This document shows positions 5,305-59,223 of a stretch of DNA of 64,000 nt, one piece after another (positions within the stretch are counted from its first letter, which is position 1; every line of letters starts with the position of its first letter). This DNA is from Microgenomates group bacterium. Its GTDB lineage: Bacteria; Patescibacteriota; Microgenomatia; UBA1400; MFAQ01. The notes beneath the pieces are model-generated. The model saw only the letters and a program-made list of their open reading frames with translations, was not told the DNA's origin and did not search any database. The stretch spans positions 247,932-311,931 of the forward strand of contig JBAQNH010000002.1 in NCBI GenBank assembly GCA_049303575.1, in the 5' to 3' direction. The position numbers were made by a program, and so were the translations under genes.

Positions 5305-5889
5305 CTAGTTAAACTTCCGGTCGATTGCCGAAAAAAGATCACTAAATCTATTAAAATTATCTTCGGAAATTGCAAAATCCACAGCAATTTTCGGGATAAT
5401 TGCTTGATGGTCATTAATTTGTCTATCTAAATCAGACAAATATGGGGCAGCCTCTCTTTCTGTTCTTCTTAATATATTTTTTATAATTATTTCTCTGGGT
5501 AAGTCTATCCTTATGGTGAATAACTTGAAATTATTTTTTATGGCAAAGTCTTGTACAAATTCAAATTTTCTATCAATGCTACTATCTAAAATAATAAACC
5601 CGTTACTCTTTGGAAGTTTCTCAAGAAGATATGCCAGGTAACTCAATAATATTTTTTGTTTATTATCATTATTATCAGGAGAAACAAGATTTTCGATAAT
5701 ATCGCGAATATCATCATTATTTATCCTAATTCCCTCATATTTCTCCTCTAATTTCTTGGCAATATAACTTTTTCCTGACCCTGTAATCCCGGAAAATAAC
5801 ACCAGAAACTTTTGATTTTTTTTATCTAAATTCCTTATCTGCTTAACGTGAATATTAAAAATTTGTTCGAGTATAGCTTGTGGGTCCAT
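5305..5889 (-). CDS. P-loop NTPase / predicted kinase (AAA_33 or zeta-toxin-like fold)
   Basis: Walker A GITGSGKS, hhhhD Walker B-like ILDSS; AT-rich; the only minus-strand gene in the first 50 kb. Confidence 0.5.
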   Translation of the reverse strand: MDPQAILEQIFNIHVKQIRNLDKKNQKFLVLFSGITGSGKSYIAKKLEEKYEGIRINNDDIRDIIENLVSPDNNDNKQKILLSYLAYLLEKLPKSNGFIILDSSIDRKFEFVQDFAIKNNFKLFTIRIDLPREIIIKNILRRTEREAAPYLSDLDRQINDHQAIIPKIAVDFAISEDNFNRFSDLFSAIDRKFN

Positions 5890-9295: not shown

Positions 9296-9307
9296 ATATC
9301 CTATAGC

Positions 9308-9336
9308 TTGACATTTAGCCCGTTTTGGAGTATACT
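9308..9336 (+). promoter_or_regulatory. consensus sigma70-type promoter (TTGACA, 17 nt spacer, TATACT)
   Basis: exact TTGACA and TATACT hexamers, 17 nt spacer, then RBS AAGGAGAG and ATG at 9381. Confidence 0.55.
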
Positions 9337-9380
9337 ACGCACAGTAATTCAAACTTACACTTTGACACAAGGAGAGTGCA

Positions 9381-9650
9381 ATGGGTTATTATTTCAACCC
9401 CCCCCAGTTACTTCCGCAAAAAGGTCGAAAATTAACTACCCGTAGTAATTTATACGGCGAACTCGTCGCTCAGCTTCAGCCAGGTGAAAAACTCATGGGG
9501 CACTATGATCGCGGCATGTTTCAAAATGCTGTCCACCTGTATTCCCAGAGCGAGTTCGATGGTTTTGAAGATCAGGTTAAGCGGGGAATAATTATCCGCC
9601 TGGGATTTTATGCCCTCAATGAAGAAGATTTCGCTCAGTATGTCGGGTAA
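9381..9650 (+). CDS. hypothetical protein (89 aa), monocistronic
   Basis: own consensus promoter, strong RBS, own terminator; no recognisable domain. Confidence 0.45.
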   Translation: MGYYFNPPQLLPQKGRKLTTRSNLYGELVAQLQPGEKLMGHYDRGMFQNAVHLYSQSEFDGFEDQVKRGIIIRLGFYALNEEDFAQYVG

Positions 9651-9661
9651 ATTTTGTACAA

Positions 9662-9696
9662 AATACCTCTTTTTTAAATAAGAGGTATTTTTTTTA
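9662..9696 (+). terminator. rho-independent terminator
   Basis: AATACCTCTT / AAGAGGTATT stem followed by T8. Confidence 0.6.
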
Positions 9697-9715
9697 GGCT
9701 ATAATTTGTATTCAA

Positions 9716-24330: not shown

Positions 24331-24357
24331 AAAAAAGCCTCCTCTGGGAGGTTTTTT
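24331..24357 (+). terminator. rho-independent terminator after rpsG
   Basis: A6-GCCTCC-TCT-GGAGGT-T6 hairpin. Confidence 0.6.
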
Positions 24358-24365
24358 GTTGTTTA

Positions 24366-24374
24366 TGGTAGAAT
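24366..24374 (+). promoter_or_regulatory. extended -10 promoter element (TGgTAGAAT) for the small ORF
   Basis: TGnTAGAAT followed by RBS AGGAGG at 24398-24403 and ATG at 24409. Confidence 0.4.
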
Positions 24375-24408
24375 ATTCCAAAATCTTGTACGTTAATAGG
24401 AGGAAAAC

Positions 24409-24669
24409 ATGTGGTGTCCATTTATTGCTGCTGCACTCATCAGCAACGAAGGTAAGAACTCTGTAGAAAGGATTCAAGATACTGCATTTCTCGATTGTCA
24501 GGAAACTAAGTGTCAAATGTGGAATTCACAAACCAAAGACTGTGGTTTAAAACAATCGTCCAACCGAACTCTTGTCGAGATCAAAGACCTTCTTGCTAGT
24601 ATCTCAAGCACCCTTAGTAACATCGGTGATGATGTCACTCGCCAGACAGAAGAATTAAATCATTATTAG
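24409..24669 (+). CDS. hypothetical small Cys-containing protein (86 aa) inserted in the str operon
   Basis: own promoter, RBS and terminator; 4 Cys; no recognisable domain. Confidence 0.45.
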   Translation: MWCPFIAAALISNEGKNSVERIQDTAFLDCQETKCQMWNSQTKDCGLKQSSNRTLVEIKDLLASISSTLSNIGDDVTRQTEELNHY

Positions 24670-24716
24670 AAGGGGAAGGTCCAGTCCACTTCAACCGAAG
24701 ATTGAGTAGTTACGCC

Positions 24717-24744
24717 TAGCGCCCTCACGGGCGCTATTTTATTT
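24717..24744 (+). terminator. rho-independent terminator
   Basis: perfect 8-bp stem TAGCGCCC/GGGCGCTA, loop TCAC, then T-rich tract. Confidence 0.65.
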
Positions 24745-38068: not shown

Positions 38069-38596
38069 ATGAATCCTTCAAATAACTCAAACAACAATCG
38101 TGGCAGAGGAGGAGATCGTCCTCAACAAGACGGTTTCGAACAAGTTCTTCAAATCCGCCGCGTTAGTAAAAAGACCCAAGGTGGTAGTAACGTTTCTTTC
38201 TCCGCCTTAGTCGTTACCGGAGACAAAAAAGGCAAGGTTGGTCTAGGACTCGCCAAAGCCCCAAACGTTGCCGATGCTATCAAAAAAGCCGTTCGTCTTA
38301 GTAATCGTGACCTCGTCCAAGTTCCTTTGGTAAATGGAACCATTCCTTACGAAACCATTTCCAAGTTTGGTGCTTCCAAAGTACTCTTCCGCCCAGCACC
38401 CAAAGGTACCGGTATTATTGCTGGTTCCTCCATTCGTGCTGTCGTAGAAGCTGCTGGTGTCACCGACATCGTCTGTAAAGCTCTAGGTAGTAACAACAAA
38501 ACAACGAACGCCCGAGCTACCTTCAAAGCTTTAAAACAAGTCGAGTCTCTCGCCAAAAAGTACGCCCTCTTAAAAGAACTTAAAGTTAAAGCCTAA
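38069..38596 (+). CDS. rpsE: 30S ribosomal protein S5
   Basis: dsRBD-like domain and S5 C-terminal domain. Confidence 0.95.
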   Translation: MNPSNNSNNNRGRGGDRPQQDGFEQVLQIRRVSKKTQGGSNVSFSALVVTGDKKGKVGLGLAKAPNVADAIKKAVRLSNRDLVQVPLVNGTIPYETISKFGASKVLFRPAPKGTGIIAGSSIRAVVEAAGVTDIVCKALGSNNKTTNARATFKALKQVESLAKKYALLKELKVKA

Positions 38597-38601
38597 ATCC
38601 T

Positions 38602-39051
38602 ATGAACTTATCTAATCTCCCTCAATCAGTCAAAACAGGAAAAAAACGCCTTGGTCGTGGATATGGTTCTGGAGTTGGCGGTCACACTGTTGGTCGTGGA
38701 CAAAAAGGTCAAAAAACTCGTGGAGTTATCCCTTTATGGTTTGAAGGTGGTCAGCTTCCAATTGTCAGACGTACCCCTTTCATTAAAGGTAAACACCGTT
38801 TCCAGGTAATTAATCTTCAACCAATCACCGTCAACTTTGACATTCTTACTAGCTACTTCGAAGACAAAGCCGTTGTTGATGCCACCTCTTTAGTCAAGAC
38901 TCTCAAAGTCAGTGACAAAGAAGCCAAGCGTGGATTCAAGATCATTGCTACGGGCAAGCTCGAAAAAGCTCTTGAGGTAAACGTTCCCGCTTCTGCCGGA
39001 GCCATCAAAGCCATCGAAAAAGCTGGTGGCAAGTATACTTTTTCTAAGTAA
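38602..39051 (+). CDS. rplO: 50S ribosomal protein L15 (follows rpsE directly; no L30 gene)
   Basis: GRGYGSGVGGHTVGRGQKG motif. Confidence 0.95.
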   Translation: MNLSNLPQSVKTGKKRLGRGYGSGVGGHTVGRGQKGQKTRGVIPLWFEGGQLPIVRRTPFIKGKHRFQVINLQPITVNFDILTSYFEDKAVVDATSLVKTLKVSDKEAKRGFKIIATGKLEKALEVNVPASAGAIKAIEKAGGKYTFSK

Positions 39052-39074
39052 CCTAAAAATTGTACCCCTATTTA

Positions 39075-39100
39075 AAAAGGCCCTTGCTTGGGGCCTTTTT
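39075..39100 (+). terminator. rho-independent terminator after rplO
   Basis: A5-GGCCC-TTGCTT-GGGCC-T5. Confidence 0.6.
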
Positions 39101-39109
39101 GATATAATA
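39101..39109 (+). promoter_or_regulatory. extended -10 promoter (TGaTATAAT) for the first island ORF
   Basis: TGnTATAAT immediately after the terminator T-tract; RBS AGGAGG at 39139-39144, ATG at 39149. Confidence 0.5.
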
Positions 39110-39148
39110 CCGTCAAGCAACTTAAAATGACCTATTCCAGGAGGAAAA

Positions 39149-39526
39149 ATGGACAGAAAATATGTGAAATGTGTCTTGGATAAGGGCTTTGCTATTGTTC
39201 GGGAAAAGGAAAACATTGCCGATGGATGGTTCCCCAATATCACTTTTTTTGGGACCGACGGCAACTTTCTCTTTACTCTTCTCGGTGACTCCAAAAAAAA
39301 ATTCTACGATGCACTTACAAAGCTGGGCGACCCAGAGGCAAATCAAGAAGATCGTCAAGAATTTGACTACTCCACACTTTCCAAAAGTTATACCTTTGAG
39401 TGGAAGTTAGGCTGGCTTTGTGTCTTCGAAACAAATGTCGTAAAAGACAAGACTAAAGACAGTTTGGTTATCATCGACAAAACTTCTGCCAAGAAAATCC
39501 TTGAGGGAATTAAAAATCTAGTCTAG
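39149..39526 (+). CDS. hypothetical protein (125 aa), island ORF 1
   Basis: own promoter, RBS and terminator; no recognisable domain. Confidence 0.5.
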   Translation: MDRKYVKCVLDKGFAIVREKENIADGWFPNITFFGTDGNFLFTLLGDSKKKFYDALTKLGDPEANQEDRQEFDYSTLSKSYTFEWKLGWLCVFETNVVKDKTKDSLVIIDKTSAKKILEGIKNLV

Positions 39527-39532
39527 TCTCTC

Positions 39533-39558
39533 TCCACCCCACCCGGGGTGGTTTTTTG
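39533..39558 (+). terminator. repeated terminator hairpin, copy 1 (CCACCCCACCCGGGGTGG + T6)
   Basis: CCACCCC/GGGGTGG stem; near-identical copies at 40132 and 41321. Confidence 0.65.
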
Positions 39559-39615
39559 TAATATAATATCCCCCAAGCAACTTAAAATTCGATAATTCAA
39601 GAGAAGGAGCCTTAC

Positions 39616-40125
39616 ATGCAGAAAAAACTTGAACTAAGAAGCCAATTTGTTCGCCCGCACTTAATTCAAAGACTGAATAAACCAATCGGTCATGTAAACC
39701 CCTGGTCCTTCGGAGGGGGATTAGAAGACGGTGGTATTAGTCAAGAAGGTATGGATATCTTGAAAGACATCTTTTCTTTTGACTATATGGGATCATCGGA
39801 GTTCGAATGGGGAGCCGTTCCCGCGGCTTTAAACTTTATTGCCCAGCAATCAAGTCTCAAAACGGTCACATCCGGGGAGATTATGGGAGTTTATTACATC
39901 TGTCCGGTTAGTTATGAAGAGGGTGTGAAAGACACAATCAAGGTATTGCTTGAAGATGAACACACCCTTCGATTGAAAGAAGGCTGCGGCCTCAAGGACA
40001 GAGTCAAAAATCTGAATGAGTGGGACGAACGCAACGTTGGTTGGCTCGAACTGGACAACGGTTTCTTCTTCTTCACCGATAAAGAAATGTTTGAGAAAAC
40101 CAAACTTCTTTTTGAAGTTCCCTAA
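39616..40125 (+). CDS. hypothetical protein (169 aa), island ORF 2
   Basis: preceded by a TATAAT box, the shared 5'-UTR motif CAAGCAACTTAAAAT and RBS AAGGAG; no recognisable domain. Confidence 0.5.
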   Translation: MQKKLELRSQFVRPHLIQRLNKPIGHVNPWSFGGGLEDGGISQEGMDILKDIFSFDYMGSSEFEWGAVPAALNFIAQQSSLKTVTSGEIMGVYYICPVSYEEGVKDTIKVLLEDEHTLRLKEGCGLKDRVKNLNEWDERNVGWLELDNGFFFFTDKEMFEKTKLLFEVP

Positions 40126-40131
40126 ATACAT

Positions 40132-40157
40132 CACCACCCCCTACGGGGTGGTTTTTA
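40132..40157 (+). terminator. repeated terminator hairpin, copy 2 (loop variant CCCTACGGGG)
   Basis: CCACCCC-CTAC-GGGGTGG + T5. Confidence 0.6.
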
Positions 40158-40740
40158 GTGCCAAGGAAACCCCGCACAAGCGAGGTCTGTGCGGGGATGA
40201 ATTGGAAAAACAGGTTACCATCGTAAGATGGTATCCTGTTGGTAGTGTGAGAAGACTGAAACTAAACCATGTTACATATCAACAGGAGTTCCATATTGTT
40301 TGGGGTACTCGATACAGAAGAAAGTTTCTTAAAAAGTACGTTAAGCCCGAGTTTGTGAGATTGTTACAGCAAGTCGAGAAGAAGTATCCTACACTCCATG
40401 TGGTTGAGGTAAATACTAATGAAGATCATGTTCACCTACAGATTGAGATACCACCGAACCTTTCTTCTGCCGTCGTGGTAAAAAGGGTGAAGTGGTATCT
40501 GAGTAAGGGGTTAAAGAAGAAATTCAAGTTCATCCGTGAGATGTATCTCGACGGCAGTATATGGAGTGTGGGTTACTTCTCTTCAACCATTGGGCTTAAC
40601 GAAGAAACCATACGAGAGTACATTGTTAAACAAGGTCAAGAAGACCTGCCGAGGGAAGAGTAGTCTTCGAACAGAATACCACCAGGAAACCCCGGACCAA
40701 TGCGAGGCAAATGCCGAGTCTGTCCGGGGAGGACGTCATT
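40150..40740 (+). mobile_element. IS200/IS605-family insertion sequence (TnpA only), bounded by subterminal hairpins
   Basis: left-end hairpin CCCCGCACA...TGTGCGGGG (40170-40196) and right-end hairpin CCCCGGAC...GTCCGGGG (40690-40729), both preceded by GGAAACC; single HUH-Y1 transposase gene between them. Confidence 0.7.
40202..40663 (+). CDS. tnpA: IS200/IS605 family transposase TnpA (HUH Y1); start uncertain
   Basis: FHIVWGTRYRRKFL motif, HVHLQIEIPP (HxH), catalytic Tyr in SVGYFSSTIG; the track start at 40016 overlaps the upstream ORF and is an artefact; candidate starts are TTG 40202 or GTG 40247. Confidence 0.75.
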   Translation: MEKQVTIVRWYPVGSVRRLKLNHVTYQQEFHIVWGTRYRRKFLKKYVKPEFVRLLQQVEKKYPTLHVVEVNTNEDHVHLQIEIPPNLSSAVVVKRVKWYLSKGLKKKFKFIREMYLDGSIWSVGYFSSTIGLNEETIREYIVKQGQEDLPREE

Positions 40741-40820
40741 TTCATGCTATTAGCTTGACAAATATACAATTATAGGATAGTGTATAGATACTTTAAAATT
40801 CTATATTCCTGGAGGTTAAT

Positions 40821-41312
40821 ATGCCCTACGTTTTTCTTAGAAACTTACCTGAACACTTTATGGGTCTAGTCAATACTCCGCGTGAAATTTTCAGTCCAGC
40901 AACATCTACCGCCGATATGTATGCGAAAATCGCGGAAGCTGCCAGTTGTGAAGTCGATGGGGTAGAAATTCACTTATCAAGTGAAACTTACACCCTTCTT
41001 AATCTGGATGGTTCAGCGCGTAAGTGTCCGAATGTTCATGGTGAAGTAGAGTGGCACGGAAGTGAAAACCGAGATCTTAAGGTAAAACAAACAATCGCCG
41101 ATGCGATTCAGCAGTTTCTGAATTTGCATCTGGCCGGTGAAGGGTTTGATCTTACTTTCCACGACTCACCTGCTGGCACGTTCTTTGTTGAAAAGGGCGG
41201 CAAATCAGTTTTGATCCAAGGAGGGGAAGCCATTCCTCCAAACAAGGTTCTCGCTCAAGTTGCCTACGAAGTCCTGGGGCACGAAACCCCAGGTGTAATA
41301 ACCAACGACTAA
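40821..41312 (+). CDS. hypothetical protein (163 aa), island ORF 3
   Basis: TTGACA-like and TATAAT-like promoter elements upstream, RBS GGAGG, followed by terminator repeat copy 3. Confidence 0.5.
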   Translation: MPYVFLRNLPEHFMGLVNTPREIFSPATSTADMYAKIAEAASCEVDGVEIHLSSETYTLLNLDGSARKCPNVHGEVEWHGSENRDLKVKQTIADAIQQFLNLHLAGEGFDLTFHDSPAGTFFVEKGGKSVLIQGGEAIPPNKVLAQVAYEVLGHETPGVITND

Positions 41313-41320
41313 CCAAGATG

Positions 41321-41346
41321 TTCTAACTAACCACCCCACCCGGGGT
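41321..41346 (+). terminator. repeated terminator hairpin, copy 3
   Basis: ACCACCCCACCCGGGGTGG + T5, then TGTAAAAT -10-like box ahead of secY. Confidence 0.65.
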
Positions 41347-41414
41347 GGTTTTTCTTTGGTGTAAAATACCTTCTGACTCACCCAAGTTTCAAGCCAACTG
41401 TTAAAATAAAAACA

Positions 41415-42701
41415 ATGAATAATTTATTAGCCCCCCTGCGTGCCTTACTGAAGATTCCCGAACTTCGTCGTCGTTTAGTCTTCACCGCCATCGTTATTGC
41501 CATTTTCCGACTCGTTGCTCATGTCCCCGCCCCGGGCATTAATCTGGCTGCTCTTAAAGAAATGTTCAACTCGTCTGCCTTTTTATCTCTTCTCGACGTC
41601 TTTTCTGGCGGTACTCTCGGGAACTTCTCTATTATGGCTCTTGGTCTTAACCCTTACATCAACGCCTCTATTATTTTCCAAATGCTCGGCATGGTCATTC
41701 CCAAGCTTGAAGCACTTCAAAAGGAAGGGGACTACGGTCGTCAAAAAATTAATCAATACACTCGTCTCCTCACCATTCCTCTCTGTTTTCTTCAAGGCAT
41801 CGCTCTAATTTTTCTTCTCCAAAAACAAGGTCTTACTACTACGGCCGATCCACTTCAGCTTGCTTCTGTTGTCTTTACTCTCGCCGCCGGCACCTCTCTT
41901 CTCATCTGGCTTGGAGAGCAACTAAACGACTACGGCCTGGGAAATGGTATCAGTCTTATCATTTTTGTTGGCATCGTTACTCGTATTCCCATAAGTCTGA
42001 TGCAGACTATCTCCACTATTGACCAAACAAGGATATTTACCTACCTTATCTTTCTTATCTTCGTCATCGCCGCCATCTATGCCATCGTGCGGACAGGTGA
42101 AGCTGTTCGTGAAATTCCCATTCAGTCTGCTCGTCGTGGCGGGGGGGCCTCTTACGGCGCCGTCGCCAGTAGCCATCTTCCCCTCCGTTTAAACCAGGCT
42201 GGTGTTATCCCAATTATCTTTGCCGTGTCCTTTATGCTCATTCCTGGGATGCTCAGTCAAATTTTGGGTCGCGTTAATCAACCGGCACTTGCTAGCTTTG
42301 CTACTACCTTGAGTATTTTGTTATCTCCGAGCTCTGTTCTTTATAATGTCCTCTACTTTGTTTTGGTGGTCGCTTTTACCTACTTTTATACCGCCGTTGT
42401 TTTCAATCCCGAAAAAATTGCCAAAGATCTTCGCTCCTCTGGATCATTCATTCCTGGTATAAGACCCGGTCCTGACACCGTTAATTATCTAAATTTTATC
42501 CTCGGTCGTATCACTCTGGTCGGAGCCAGTTTCCTTGGTCTTGTCGCCGTTCTTCCTTCAATTATGTCCGGTTTTACCGGTATTTCCTCACTAGCTATTG
42601 GTGGTACCAGTGTTCTTATCGTCGTCTCGGTTGTTCTCGAGATCTTGAAGACCATCAACTCCCAGCTCTATATGCACAGTTACGACAAATTCCTGGATTA
42701 G
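41415..42701 (+). CDS. secY: preprotein translocase subunit SecY
   Basis: 428 aa, 10 TM helices, SecY signature regions. Confidence 0.95.
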   Translation: MNNLLAPLRALLKIPELRRRLVFTAIVIAIFRLVAHVPAPGINLAALKEMFNSSAFLSLLDVFSGGTLGNFSIMALGLNPYINASIIFQMLGMVIPKLEALQKEGDYGRQKINQYTRLLTIPLCFLQGIALIFLLQKQGLTTTADPLQLASVVFTLAAGTSLLIWLGEQLNDYGLGNGISLIIFVGIVTRIPISLMQTISTIDQTRIFTYLIFLIFVIAAIYAIVRTGEAVREIPIQSARRGGGASYGAVASSHLPLRLNQAGVIPIIFAVSFMLIPGMLSQILGRVNQPALASFATTLSILLSPSSVLYNVLYFVLVVAFTYFYTAVVFNPEKIAKDLRSSGSFIPGIRPGPDTVNYLNFILGRITLVGASFLGLVAVLPSIMSGFTGISSLAIGGTSVLIVVSVVLEILKTINSQLYMHSYDKFLD

Positions 42702-44341: not shown

Positions 44342-44455
44342 ATGCGCGTTCAATCGTCAGTCAGACCCAGATGCAAAAACTGCAAAATTATTAAACGCCA
44401 CGGTAAGGTGTTCATTATTTGCACCACCCCACGCCATAAACAGCGTCAGGGATAA
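44342..44455 (+). CDS. rpmJ: 50S ribosomal protein L36 (zinc ribbon)
   Basis: [37 protein letters not shown]; below the ORF-track size cutoff. Confidence 0.85.
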
Positions 44456-54831: not shown

Positions 54832-55611
54832 ATGACCCGTATTTTAATAATTTGTTCCTTCTGTAAGGGAAAAATATATCGAAATCCGAGCAGTATAAAT
54901 AGTAAACATAATTTTTGTAATCATCACTGTTCAGCTTCGTTTACCAACAGAAAAAGAACTACAAAACTATCGGTTTTAAGAAAAACTCGGGTAATTCTAT
55001 CTCCGCTTTGCAAGCAGTTTGGCTGTTCCAATCACATTGGTCTAGAAAATAAAATATTTTGTTCATATCAATGTAAAAAAGCCTTCTATCAAAGCGGACA
55101 CTCACAATTCAAAGAAGAAAGTATAAAAAGGGTCAGTTCCTTCATGAAAGAATATGGCAGATTACCTGTTAAACGAGAGTTTTCTCAAGGATACAAAAGA
55201 ATTCTTCACGTCTTTGGTTCCTGGAATAATCTGATCAAATCTGCGGGTTTCGAACCCAATCCGGTATTATTTTCTCGGAAATATATCGCCAACGACGGAC
55301 ACGGATGTGACTCTTTATCTGAAAAAATTATTGATGATTGGATGTTTGCACGGAAGATTCCACACCTGATAAAAGAAAAATATCCTTGGAATAACGGCAT
55401 GACAGCTGATTTTAAAGTTGGTGAATATTGGATTGAATTATTTGGACTTGTTGGTCAATTGAAGTCATATGATTGTTTAATGAAAATAAAACTTCAAAAA
55501 GTCAAAGAACACAATTTAAACTTAATTAGTTTATTTTTAAGTGATTTGTTTCCACATAATCATCTTCAAGATAAATTAGACATCTTGCGAAAACGGTCAA
55601 CTTATCTATAA
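54832..55611 (+). CDS. hypothetical Cys-rich (zinc-ribbon) protein, strongly AT-rich gene
   Basis: several CxxC/CxxxC pairs in the N-terminal 90 aa; composition far below the window average. Confidence 0.4.
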   Translation: MTRILIICSFCKGKIYRNPSSINSKHNFCNHHCSASFTNRKRTTKLSVLRKTRVILSPLCKQFGCSNHIGLENKIFCSYQCKKAFYQSGHSQFKEESIKRVSSFMKEYGRLPVKREFSQGYKRILHVFGSWNNLIKSAGFEPNPVLFSRKYIANDGHGCDSLSEKIIDDWMFARKIPHLIKEKYPWNNGMTADFKVGEYWIELFGLVGQLKSYDCLMKIKLQKVKEHNLNLISLFLSDLFPHNHLQDKLDILRKRSTYL

Positions 55612-58947: not shown

Positions 58948-59223
58948 ATGACCAAACAAACACTCATCGGCATAGTGTCCAAAAAGGTACACTTGACCAA
59001 GAAGGCAGTTAAAGAAACTGTAGACACATTTTTCGAAGAATCTATTGTCGCGCTCGGTAAAGGAGAAAAAGTAGTTATTTCCGGTTTTGGTACTTTTTAT
59101 GTAGGAAAAGTTGATGACAAACAAGTTGTTCCTTTCGGTAATGAAGGTAAAAGACAAGTTGTTAAAGGTCACAAAGTCATTAATTTCCACGTCGGTAAGC
59201 CATTAAAAAAGAAGGTTTGGTAA
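58948..59223 (+). CDS. hup: DNA-binding protein HU/IHF family
   Basis: 91 aa; GFGTF motif. Confidence 0.9.
   Translation: MTKQTLIGIVSKKVHLTKKAVKETVDTFFEESIVALGKGEKVVISGFGTFYVGKVDDKQVVPFGNEGKRQVVKGHKVINFHVGKPLKKKVW

Follow-up and report, generated by a model that had tools for sequence, protein, structure and literature searches.

A strain-variable gap between rplO and secY in a Microgenomates genome, probably a recombination hotspot for self-contained small genes

The spacer between rplO and secY in a Microgenomates group bacterium is probably a strain-variable recombination hotspot, placed at a natural operon break and filled with single-gene units that resemble the phage 'morons' of Hendrix and Juhala, extra genes with their own promoter and terminator that separate two genes which are direct neighbours in related genomes. 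We analysed a stretch of 64,000 nucleotides (nt) of contig JBAQNH010000002.1 (positions 247,932 to 311,931, forward strand; hereafter the window), where rplO and secY were separated by 2,363 nt (39052-41414) containing three open reading frames (ORF1, ORF2 and ORF3) and one intact IS200 insertion sequence (IS). A first-pass annotation made from the sequence alone had put the gap at about 2.35 kb, with ORFs of 125, 169 and 163 amino acids (aa), as our measurement confirmed, and had called the interval accessory rather than core, as its differing content among relatives supports. All three ORFs are real genes under purifying selection, and they encode unrelated soluble proteins.

Variable content and recombination at the junction

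Across seven related contigs carrying homologs, the rplO-secY gap held differing mixes of about eight gene families (Table 1) and measured 0.5-2.7 kb, beside an rplO whose protein in the window was 90-100% identical to that of relatives L004-L012. The first-pass annotation had set its accessory island against a uniform placement of homologs between rplO and secY, and one half of that placement was found: an ORF2 homolog lay in the gap of every close relative with a covered interval, the exception being the near-identical strain L012, which apparently had no ORF2 there. Since ORF2 homologs recur at the gap in relatives, the interval is a lineage-conserved variable site and not a one-off island.

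Window and L012 were about 99% identical from 31912 to about 39100, and then, over the 3' half of ORF1, only 76% identical; synonymous divergence (dS) between the two was 0.069 for rplO and 0.33 for ORF1. Between the window and L005, dS was about 0.4 in the flanks and saturated in ORF2, so the ORF2 alleles at this site were swapped in rather than passed down vertically. ORF1 formed a three-way mosaic of the window, L005 and L012, with nt 1-102 of the L012 allele matching L005 at 97%, nt 103-182 matching the window at 98.8% and the remainder differing in all three. The 1.8-kb difference between window and L012, comprising ORF2, IS200 and ORF3, was bounded by copies of a hairpin identical over 23 nt (39534-39556 and 41331-41353), and the 84 nt that L012 retains past ORF1 were matched over their full length by the spacer between ORF1 and secY in L005, and at 89% by the secY-upstream sequence of the window. 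Two ORF2-family paralogs (57% identical) stood in tandem in L011 (1288-2328), 12 nt apart and with one promoter and one terminator, so the ORF2 family can duplicate or stack inside the hotspot. The whole pattern fits homologous or illegitimate recombination through conserved flanks and repeated junctions, and not a precise site-specific mechanism. Short palindromic repeats, GTCATTGCGA..GCAATCTCACA and CATTCCCGC..GCGGGAATC, recurred 3' of rplO or 5' of secY in relatives; they resemble small REP-like (repetitive extragenic palindromic) or MITE-like (miniature inverted-repeat transposable element) elements and were absent from the window island.

In this Microgenomates clade the spc cluster would be naturally broken here, with a terminator behind rplO and a promoter belonging to secY, ancestrally to a DUF2284-secY pair. 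The fold energy of the terminator-like hairpin that follows rplO was equalled in 0 of 200 shuffles, and the hairpin also lay 3' of rplO in L005, L011 and L012. After the last hairpin of the island secY did have a promoter-like box, as first described, and this box was conserved in related genomes. An intact DUF2284 gene (match 5.9e-6; intergenic comparison), of a predicted metal-binding, Cys-rich family, bore the conserved TTTGGTGTAAAAT box in L004, L007 and L011 and ended 5 nt 5' of secY. The gene was lost in the window, L005, L012 and L013, where its last ~20 nt were left as the secY translation-initiation region; in the window its deletion is apparent because the TTTGGTGTAAAAT box and a ~20-nt remnant of its 3' end, CCAACTGTTAAAATAA (~41390-41414), remain. 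As rplO has a terminator and secY a promoter, insertions at the gap would have no polar effect on their neighbours.

Table 1. Features of the rplO-secY interval, comparable units elsewhere in the window, and gap content in related contigs (SD, Shine-Dalgarno sequence).
Feature	Position	Strand	Description
rplO (L15), upstream flank	38602-39051	+	Pfam Ribosomal_L27A 5e-11
rplO terminator-like hairpin	39074-39100	+	AAAAAGGCCC-loop-GGGGCCTTTTT; natural operon break; fold -10.2 kcal/mol
ORF1 expression signals	39096-39144	+	TTGATA-18-TAAAAT / extended -10 TGATATAAT; leader motif CAAGCAACTTAAAAT 39114-39128; SD AGGAGG 39139-39144
ORF1	39149-39526	+	125 aa; small family, conserved ends, variable centre
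Cassette hairpin 1	39534-39557	+	CCACCCC-ACCC-GGGGTGG + T6; 3' of ORF1
ORF2 expression signals	39555-39609	+	TAATATAAT; CAAGCAACTTAAAAT 39574-39588; SD AAGGAG 39604-39609
ORF2	39616-40125	+	169 aa; large unnamed family; motifs LIQR, DYMGSxEFEWGAxP, LKE, GWLELDNG
Cassette hairpin 2	40133-40157	+	ACCACCCC-CTAC-GGGGTGGT + T5; 3' of ORF2
IS200-type insertion sequence	40162-40752	+	ends approximate, from uninterrupted junctions in L005, L007, L011
IS200 left-end hairpin	40170-40196		fold z = -7.0
IS200 hairpin masking ribosome-binding site	40216-40233
tnpA	40247-40663	+	138 aa, start GTG; Pfam Y1_Tnp, NCBIfam transpos_IS200
IS200 right-end hairpin	40690-40729
ORF3 expression signals	40755-40815	+	TTGACA (40755-40760)-17 nt-TAGTGT; CTTTAAAAT; SD GGAGG 40811-40815
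ORF3	40821-41312	+	163 aa; N-terminal ~110 aa plausibly DUF1904-like, invariant Pro2; ~50-aa C-terminal extension
Cassette hairpin 3	41329-41355	+	AACCACCCC-ACCC-GGGGTGGTT + T-run; 3' of ORF3
secY upstream region	41356-41414	+	conserved promoter-like TTTGGTGTAAAAT (TAAAAT 41362-41367); DUF2284 3' remnant
secY, downstream flank	41415-42701	+	Pfam SecY 2.9e-100
Stand-alone unit	9305-9700		TTGACA-17-TATACT; SD AAGGAG; 89-aa ORF 9381-9650; terminator hairpin ~9663-9695
Stand-alone unit between rpsG and fusA	24334-24740		86-aa Cys-rich ORF 24409-24669
DUF2284 gene in relatives	L004 5570-6084; L007 3847-4359; L011 2388-2900		L004 copy missed by gene caller
Palindromic repeats in relatives	L004 3341-3673; L007 2299-2350; L011 2-40; L179 ~2080-2380
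Gene order, window			rplO, ORF1, ORF2, IS200, ORF3, secY
Gene order, L005/L006			rplO, ORF2, ORF1, secY
Gene order, L007/L008			rplO, ORF2, 246-aa gene (weak DnaJ zinc-finger), DUF2284, secY
Gene order, L004			rplO, ORF1-like (131 aa), 106-aa gene, 107-aa gene, ORF2, DUF2284, secY
Gene order, L011			(contig start), ORF3, ORF1-like, ORF2, ORF2 paralog, DUF2284, secY
Gene order, L013			(contig start), ORF3, secY
Gene order, L012			rplO, ORF1, secY-upstream sequence, contig end
Gene order, L179 (more distant; secY 81%)			ORF2 homolog, another SD-led cassette, secY

The GC skew of the + strand was negative across 34-46 kb and positive only at 39400-41200. Nearly all genes of the window lie on this strand, yet it was C-rich (GC skew -0.05 to -0.25); G exceeded C on the coding strand only in the island and a few minus-strand genes, which is unusual for a presumed leading strand. 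Two further ORFs, at 5305-5889 (- strand) and 54832-55611 (+ strand), had a GC content of 0.30 and 0.33 against ~0.44 for the window and may be foreign. Upstream of the gap (38069-39051), rpsE was followed directly by rplO, with no rpmD (L30) between them, an arrangement in keeping with bacteria of the candidate phyla radiation (CPR), which are not known to encode L30; rpmJ (37 aa; 44342-44455) was present between infA and rpsM. An Rfam scan of 38500-41600 returned no family, and the literature yielded no relevant work on this locus, on the ORF2 motif, or on how Patescibacteria use SDs and organise their ribosomal operons.

Expression signals and terminator hairpins

Each of the three ORFs carried, in its sequence, the promoter-like box, strong SD and hairpin with T-run that the first-pass annotation had assigned to it. 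Its accompanying statement, that most other genes in the window have a weak SD or none, was borne out by anti-SD duplex energies for 71 window ORFs (median -0.7 kcal/mol; only seven at -8 or below), among which ORF1 and ORF3 reached -10.3 and -10.5 kcal/mol, the SD of ORF2 being AAGGAG. The HU gene (58948-59223; PF00216, 6e-18) also had a strong SD, at -14.5 kcal/mol, and a strong SD here therefore marks highly expressed stand-alone genes, for which it seems to be reserved in this largely SD-less genome. Given their strong SD and consensus promoter, the units of the island would, like HU, be expressed autonomously and at a high level.

A generic promoter scan of the window returned 17 promoters against 14.7 expected from shuffles, i.e. 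no enrichment, and because of this the promoter assignments rest on conservation: the boxes 5' of the cassettes and 5' of secY were conserved across related genomes. The ORF1 promoter had 10 of 12 consensus matches in the scan, repeat families D2 and D4 were common to the upstream regions of ORF1 and ORF2, and the L011 homolog of ORF3 was preceded by a homologous TTGACA-17-TACAAT. From these signals we infer that transcription of the three genes may well be monocistronic and insulated, as first proposed.

Across loci, cassettes began with TTGACA-17-TAnnnT or TTTGATATAAT, usually followed by (A)CTTAAAAT and then AGGAGG, and ended in CCACC(C/T)C-loop-G(G/A)GGTGG with T5-7, the loop being variable. 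Within the 64 kb of the window the pattern CACCCC-N4-GGGGTGG-T5 occurred three times, directly 3' of ORF1, ORF2 and ORF3, where 0.05 occurrences were expected. The hairpin ended essentially every cassette in L004-L013 and, in each ~10-kb locus, was confined to the island; relatives also had a compensatory stem variant, CCACCTC/GAGGTGG, which supports a structural constraint on the stem. A scan of the genome collection for the hairpin pattern gave, among the matches listed, Collinsella and many unrelated taxa, the pattern being too generic. The hairpin terminator was rejected as a trait of the whole ORF2 family, as it is local to the clade of the window.

Two similar units stood elsewhere in the window, and their encoded proteins (89 and 86 aa) had no Pfam match. 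The gene of the second was preceded by a terminator, AAAAAAGCCTCC..GGAGGTTTTTT, a TGGTAGAAT box and an AGGAGG SD, and was followed by a terminator of its own. This gene splits rpsG from fusA, another normally tight junction. Together these units indicate that the layout is the general format of stand-alone small genes in this organism, and the island is a cluster of three such units at the hotspot.

We propose that the gap takes in self-contained units. In each, a promoter close to the sigma70 or extended -10 consensus would precede a short CTTAAAAT leader, AGGAGG and an ORF, closed by a CCACC(C/T)C-loop-G(G/A)GGTGG hairpin and T-run, which is the anatomy of a phage moron. Units would be gained, lost, reordered and replaced by homologous recombination, for which likely substrates are the strongly conserved genes on either side and the hairpin/promoter junctions that recur from unit to unit.

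The encoded proteins and the insertion sequence

Scans of ORF1-3 against Pfam, PHROGs and NCBIfam gave no match, and PADLOC gave none at E<=1, in agreement with the initial statement that the sequence does not reveal a function. Kinship among the three families was rejected by hhalign. The description of the genes as orphans had to be given up, as relatives were found for each: 807 clusters with 421 metagenome and 108 viral loci for ORF2, about 17 sequences for ORF1 and four for ORF3.

The ORF2 homologs formed 807 clusters (at 90% identity) at E<=0.01, whose source names, where given, were Microgenomates, Woesebacteria and Collierbacteria; the 421 encoding loci came from a metagenome scan and the 108 loci on viral contigs from an IMG/VR scan. 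Distant viral copies were ~145 aa long with the motifs YLIQR, DYMGSxEFE[WF]GALP, LKE and WWDIENDY, and the neighbours of phage copies included genes for DNA helicase, DnaB-like helicase, clamp loader, thymidylate synthase, integrase and HNH endonuclease. No homologs were found on plasmids, and the only phage record encoding one was metagenomic (485 kb), so ORF2 was rejected as a plasmid or cultured-phage gene. Searches of Pfam, PHROG, NCBIfam and PADLOC with ORF2, of known models with 93 family members and five phage members, and of PDB by sequence profile returned nothing significant. The AlphaFold 2 model of ORF2 was confident and had no fold match in PDB, its predicted fold matching two phage proteins; the fold is apparently new. 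Clustering of the neighbours of 80 metagenome and 79 viral loci gave no shared neighbour family, and ORF2 adjoined rplO/secY only in the clade of the window, with homologs elsewhere at other sites. The ratio of nonsynonymous to synonymous divergence (dN/dS) was 0.07-0.14, i.e. strong purifying selection, and polar and acidic residues were invariant across the family, with Q18, R19, Y57, E64 and W143 among the invariant positions. This constraint, these residues and the replication-module neighbours in phages suggest that ORF2 probably acts on a conserved target, as an enzyme or a specific binding factor, perhaps in nucleic-acid metabolism.

A word-indexed search with ORF1 found one close homolog, and an exhaustive profile search (HMMER) found ~17 true relatives of 118-134 aa, with no Pfam match and, by sequence-profile search, no PDB match for the family. 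Identity to ORF1 was 74% for P0127, 67% for L005 and 27-29% for L004/L011. The N- and C-termini were conserved and the centre variable; together with a relaxed dN/dS of 0.41-0.57, still indicating purifying selection, this suggests a protein of the binding or inhibitor type. As the source of ORF1 variability, a diversity-generating retroelement was rejected, since no reverse transcriptase was found and the three-way ORF1 alignment, read by eye, had no A-specific substitution bias.

The four homologs of ORF3 each began MP[CY][VI]FL, and ORF3 was under purifying selection (dN/dS 0.16). Window ORF3 itself had no match to Pfam DUF1904 (PF08921) at E<=10, and a sequence-profile search of PDB with the family returned none. 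Its homolog P0124 (60% identical) scored 27.4 bits against DUF1904, above the cut-off of 24.1, over residues 25-111; another, P0125, reached 18 bits, below that cut-off. DUF1904 is presumably a family of the tautomerase/MIF superfamily (e.g. PDB 4m1a, VC0714). The ORF3 family, in which a Pro after Met is invariant and the topology is beta-alpha-beta-beta-alpha, may share these features with it, and has one member above the Pfam threshold; unlike DUF1904, window ORF3 falls below the threshold and has a ~50-aa C-terminal extension. A DUF1904/tautomerase-like N-terminal domain is thus plausible, not established, and ORF3 may be a tautomerase-like enzyme; we know of no activity for DUF1904 itself.

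The IS200 was intact, as first described: TnpA matched Pfam Y1_Tnp (6.5e-26, profile positions 3-121 of 121) and NCBIfam transpos_IS200 (1.2e-27; 96.6 bits against a cut-off of 55), and hairpins lay at both ends, sharing the motif AGGAAACCCCG (repeat D3). The start of tnpA is most likely the GTG at 40247, from which the N-terminus is typical of the family, a mechanically listed 215-aa ORF overlapping ORF2. Like TnpA-only members of IS200/IS605, the element was ~0.6 kb long and encoded a Y1/HUH transposase of ~138 aa with an HVH (HxH) motif and a C-terminal tyrosine (..REYIVKQ), with a subterminal hairpin at either end and another that covers the ribosome-binding site; it had no tnpB. It was present as a single copy in the window, with no related plasmid copy, and comparison with uninterrupted junctions places its ends to within ~10 nt. 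No related locus carried it, at odds with the association between IS200 and the three genes that had been suggested. Probably the IS200 arrived later and independently, landing between the terminator of ORF2 and the promoter of ORF3, where it is neutral for both.

Alternative explanations and comparison with known systems

The first-pass annotation had proposed a single undescribed accessory module, which would mean that the three ORFs and the IS200 belong to one set whose genes function jointly and arrived in one acquisition, perhaps along with the IS. The genes neighbour each other on one strand, have regulatory repeats in common, all lacked database annotation and differ in GC skew from their surroundings. 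We nevertheless regard this as highly improbable, since the three genes do not travel together: they were found singly or in other combinations and orders in relatives, their families are unrelated, each has its own promoter-like box and terminator hairpin, ORF2 had no conserved neighbour in ~160 loci and the IS200 was unique to the window genome. It is unlikely, too, that ORF2, and perhaps ORF1, are lineage-specific core genes, i.e. new translation or secretion factors kept in place by a functional link to rplO/secY. Such a link would suit the strong purifying selection on ORF2, the ORF2 homologs in the gap of L004, L005/6, L007/8, L011 and L179, and the DUF2284 gene translationally coupled to secY in three relatives; against it, ORF2 homologs beyond the clade lie elsewhere without a conserved neighbour, and also in phages, ORF2 has its own promoter and terminator, the near-identical L012 had no ORF2 at the site (its contig ending 84 nt past ORF1), and saturated ORF2 dS beside flanks at 0.4 speaks for replacement and not vertical descent.

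Little probability attaches to a site-specific cassette system with the hairpin as recombination site, either resembling attC or serving as a REP-like target for a Y1/HUH enzyme, for instance IS200 TnpA. The hairpin with its T-run is a textbook intrinsic terminator, a pattern common in unrelated bacteria, and it has none of the attC features (57-141 nt length, extrahelical bases, R/L boxes); attC sites are imperfect palindromes. A near-identical 18-nt hairpin does end each cassette in seven genomes while genes and loops vary, with a compensatory stem variant, and the window/L012 indel falls exactly between two hairpin copies; a 23-nt direct repeat is, however, enough for RecA-mediated or slippage deletion, and some breakpoints interrupt a gene or fall on a start codon. 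Promoter types were shuffled relative to ORFs, homology beginning near the CTTAAAAT motif, and an HUH transposase gene sits inside the array, but no locus had an integrase or recombinase gene in or beside its array, the IS200 end hairpins (CCCCGCACA.., CCCCGGAC..) differ from the cassette hairpin and the IS was missing from all relatives. Equally hard to favour is the idea that the hairpins with the CTTAAAAT motif form the junctions of an undescribed integrase-less exchange system that swaps phage-derived genes at a ribosomal safe harbour, ORF2 being a new fold family; were it true, ORF2 would have a role in phage-host conflict or nucleic-acid metabolism common to CPR bacteria and (jumbo) phages. 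A prophage remnant, in which the interval would be what decay has left of one end of an integrated phage, with the ORFs as surviving morons, is scarcely credible: the moron-like units, their atypical composition, the 108 viral contigs with the ORF2 family and the fold match to two phage proteins could be read in this way, whereas no integrase, att site, tRNA, structural or replication gene occurred in any of the seven loci, no PHROG matches were obtained, the interval stayed at 0.5-2.7 kb in all relatives and one site was reused with differing content.

Several observations weigh against the recombination hotspot that we prefer. The sample is small, seven related contigs of which several are short, and the contig of L012 ends 84 nt past ORF1, so the absence of ORF2 and ORF3 there rests on those 84 nt; the presence of ORF2 in the gap of every other close relative would also suit a lineage gene that is semi-fixed and has a role tied to this location. 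Some breakpoints fall off the hairpins, for example at the 107-aa gene exactly at the ORF2 start codon when L004 is compared with L011. Promoters, terminators and expression level were read from sequence, and the promoter scan did no better than shuffles. A role of the units in phage-host or symbiont-host conflict (or niche adaptation) is our best guess, although a doubtful one and the weakest step in the argument. Some IMG/VR contigs with the closest ORF2 homologs are also long metagenome contigs that may be CPR chromosome fragments rather than phages, and strong purifying selection on ORF2 is atypical of arms-race proteins.

The rplO-secY junction is a fixed landmark in CPR phylogenomics and binning, and a strain-variable site there would mean that even this cluster can serve as a safe harbour for accessory genes. 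As a marker that is easily amplified, the interval can be used to follow gene flow and diversity among strains of uncultivated Microgenomates. Unknown proteins abound in CPR genomes, and the locus names specific ones to study. It exposes in ORF2 a large, unannotated, phage-shared family that, being constrained and having a confident model with no solved-structure match, is a good candidate for structural and functional work. The presence of strong-SD genes in a genome that mostly does without SDs is also relevant to the partitioning of translation initiation signals in CPR.

Among known systems, an integron array likewise has tandem single-gene units on one strand, each closed by a hairpin-forming repeat, and strain-variable content and order. 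In the window and L004-L013, every ORF of the rpsE-to-map region was ribosomal, housekeeping or a small cassette, with no IntI or attI among them; the window hairpins, perfect stems of 18-22 nt followed by a T-run, are not attC sites, and each window unit carries its own promoter-like box and SD, unlike integron cassettes, most of which have no promoter. Horizontal gene transfer hotspots that lie between core genes share with the interval a variable gene set between two highly conserved genes, mosaic alleles, discordant dS, and turnover by homologous recombination in the flanks with no dedicated mobility gene. The window site differs from these in being very small (0.5-2.7 kb), in lying inside the most conserved gene cluster of bacteria, and in that its units share regulatory and terminator repeats that double as recombination junctions. 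The units resemble morons in consisting, as judged from sequence signals, of a promoter-like box, an ORF and a hairpin terminator conserved in relatives, in sitting between genes adjacent in almost all bacteria, with presence varying among close relatives, and in their atypical composition and presumed autonomous expression; ORF2-IS200-ORF3 was seemingly missing from L012, a strain with ~99% identical flanks whose contig ends 84 nt past ORF1. Unlike morons, they are hosted by a bacterial ribosomal-protein gene cluster, with no phage genes in the window region or related loci and no lysogen context, and several stand in tandem with near-identical terminators. The locus thus combines known kinds, a hotspot of horizontal gene transfer and moron-like units, and what is notable is its position inside the ribosomal gene cluster.

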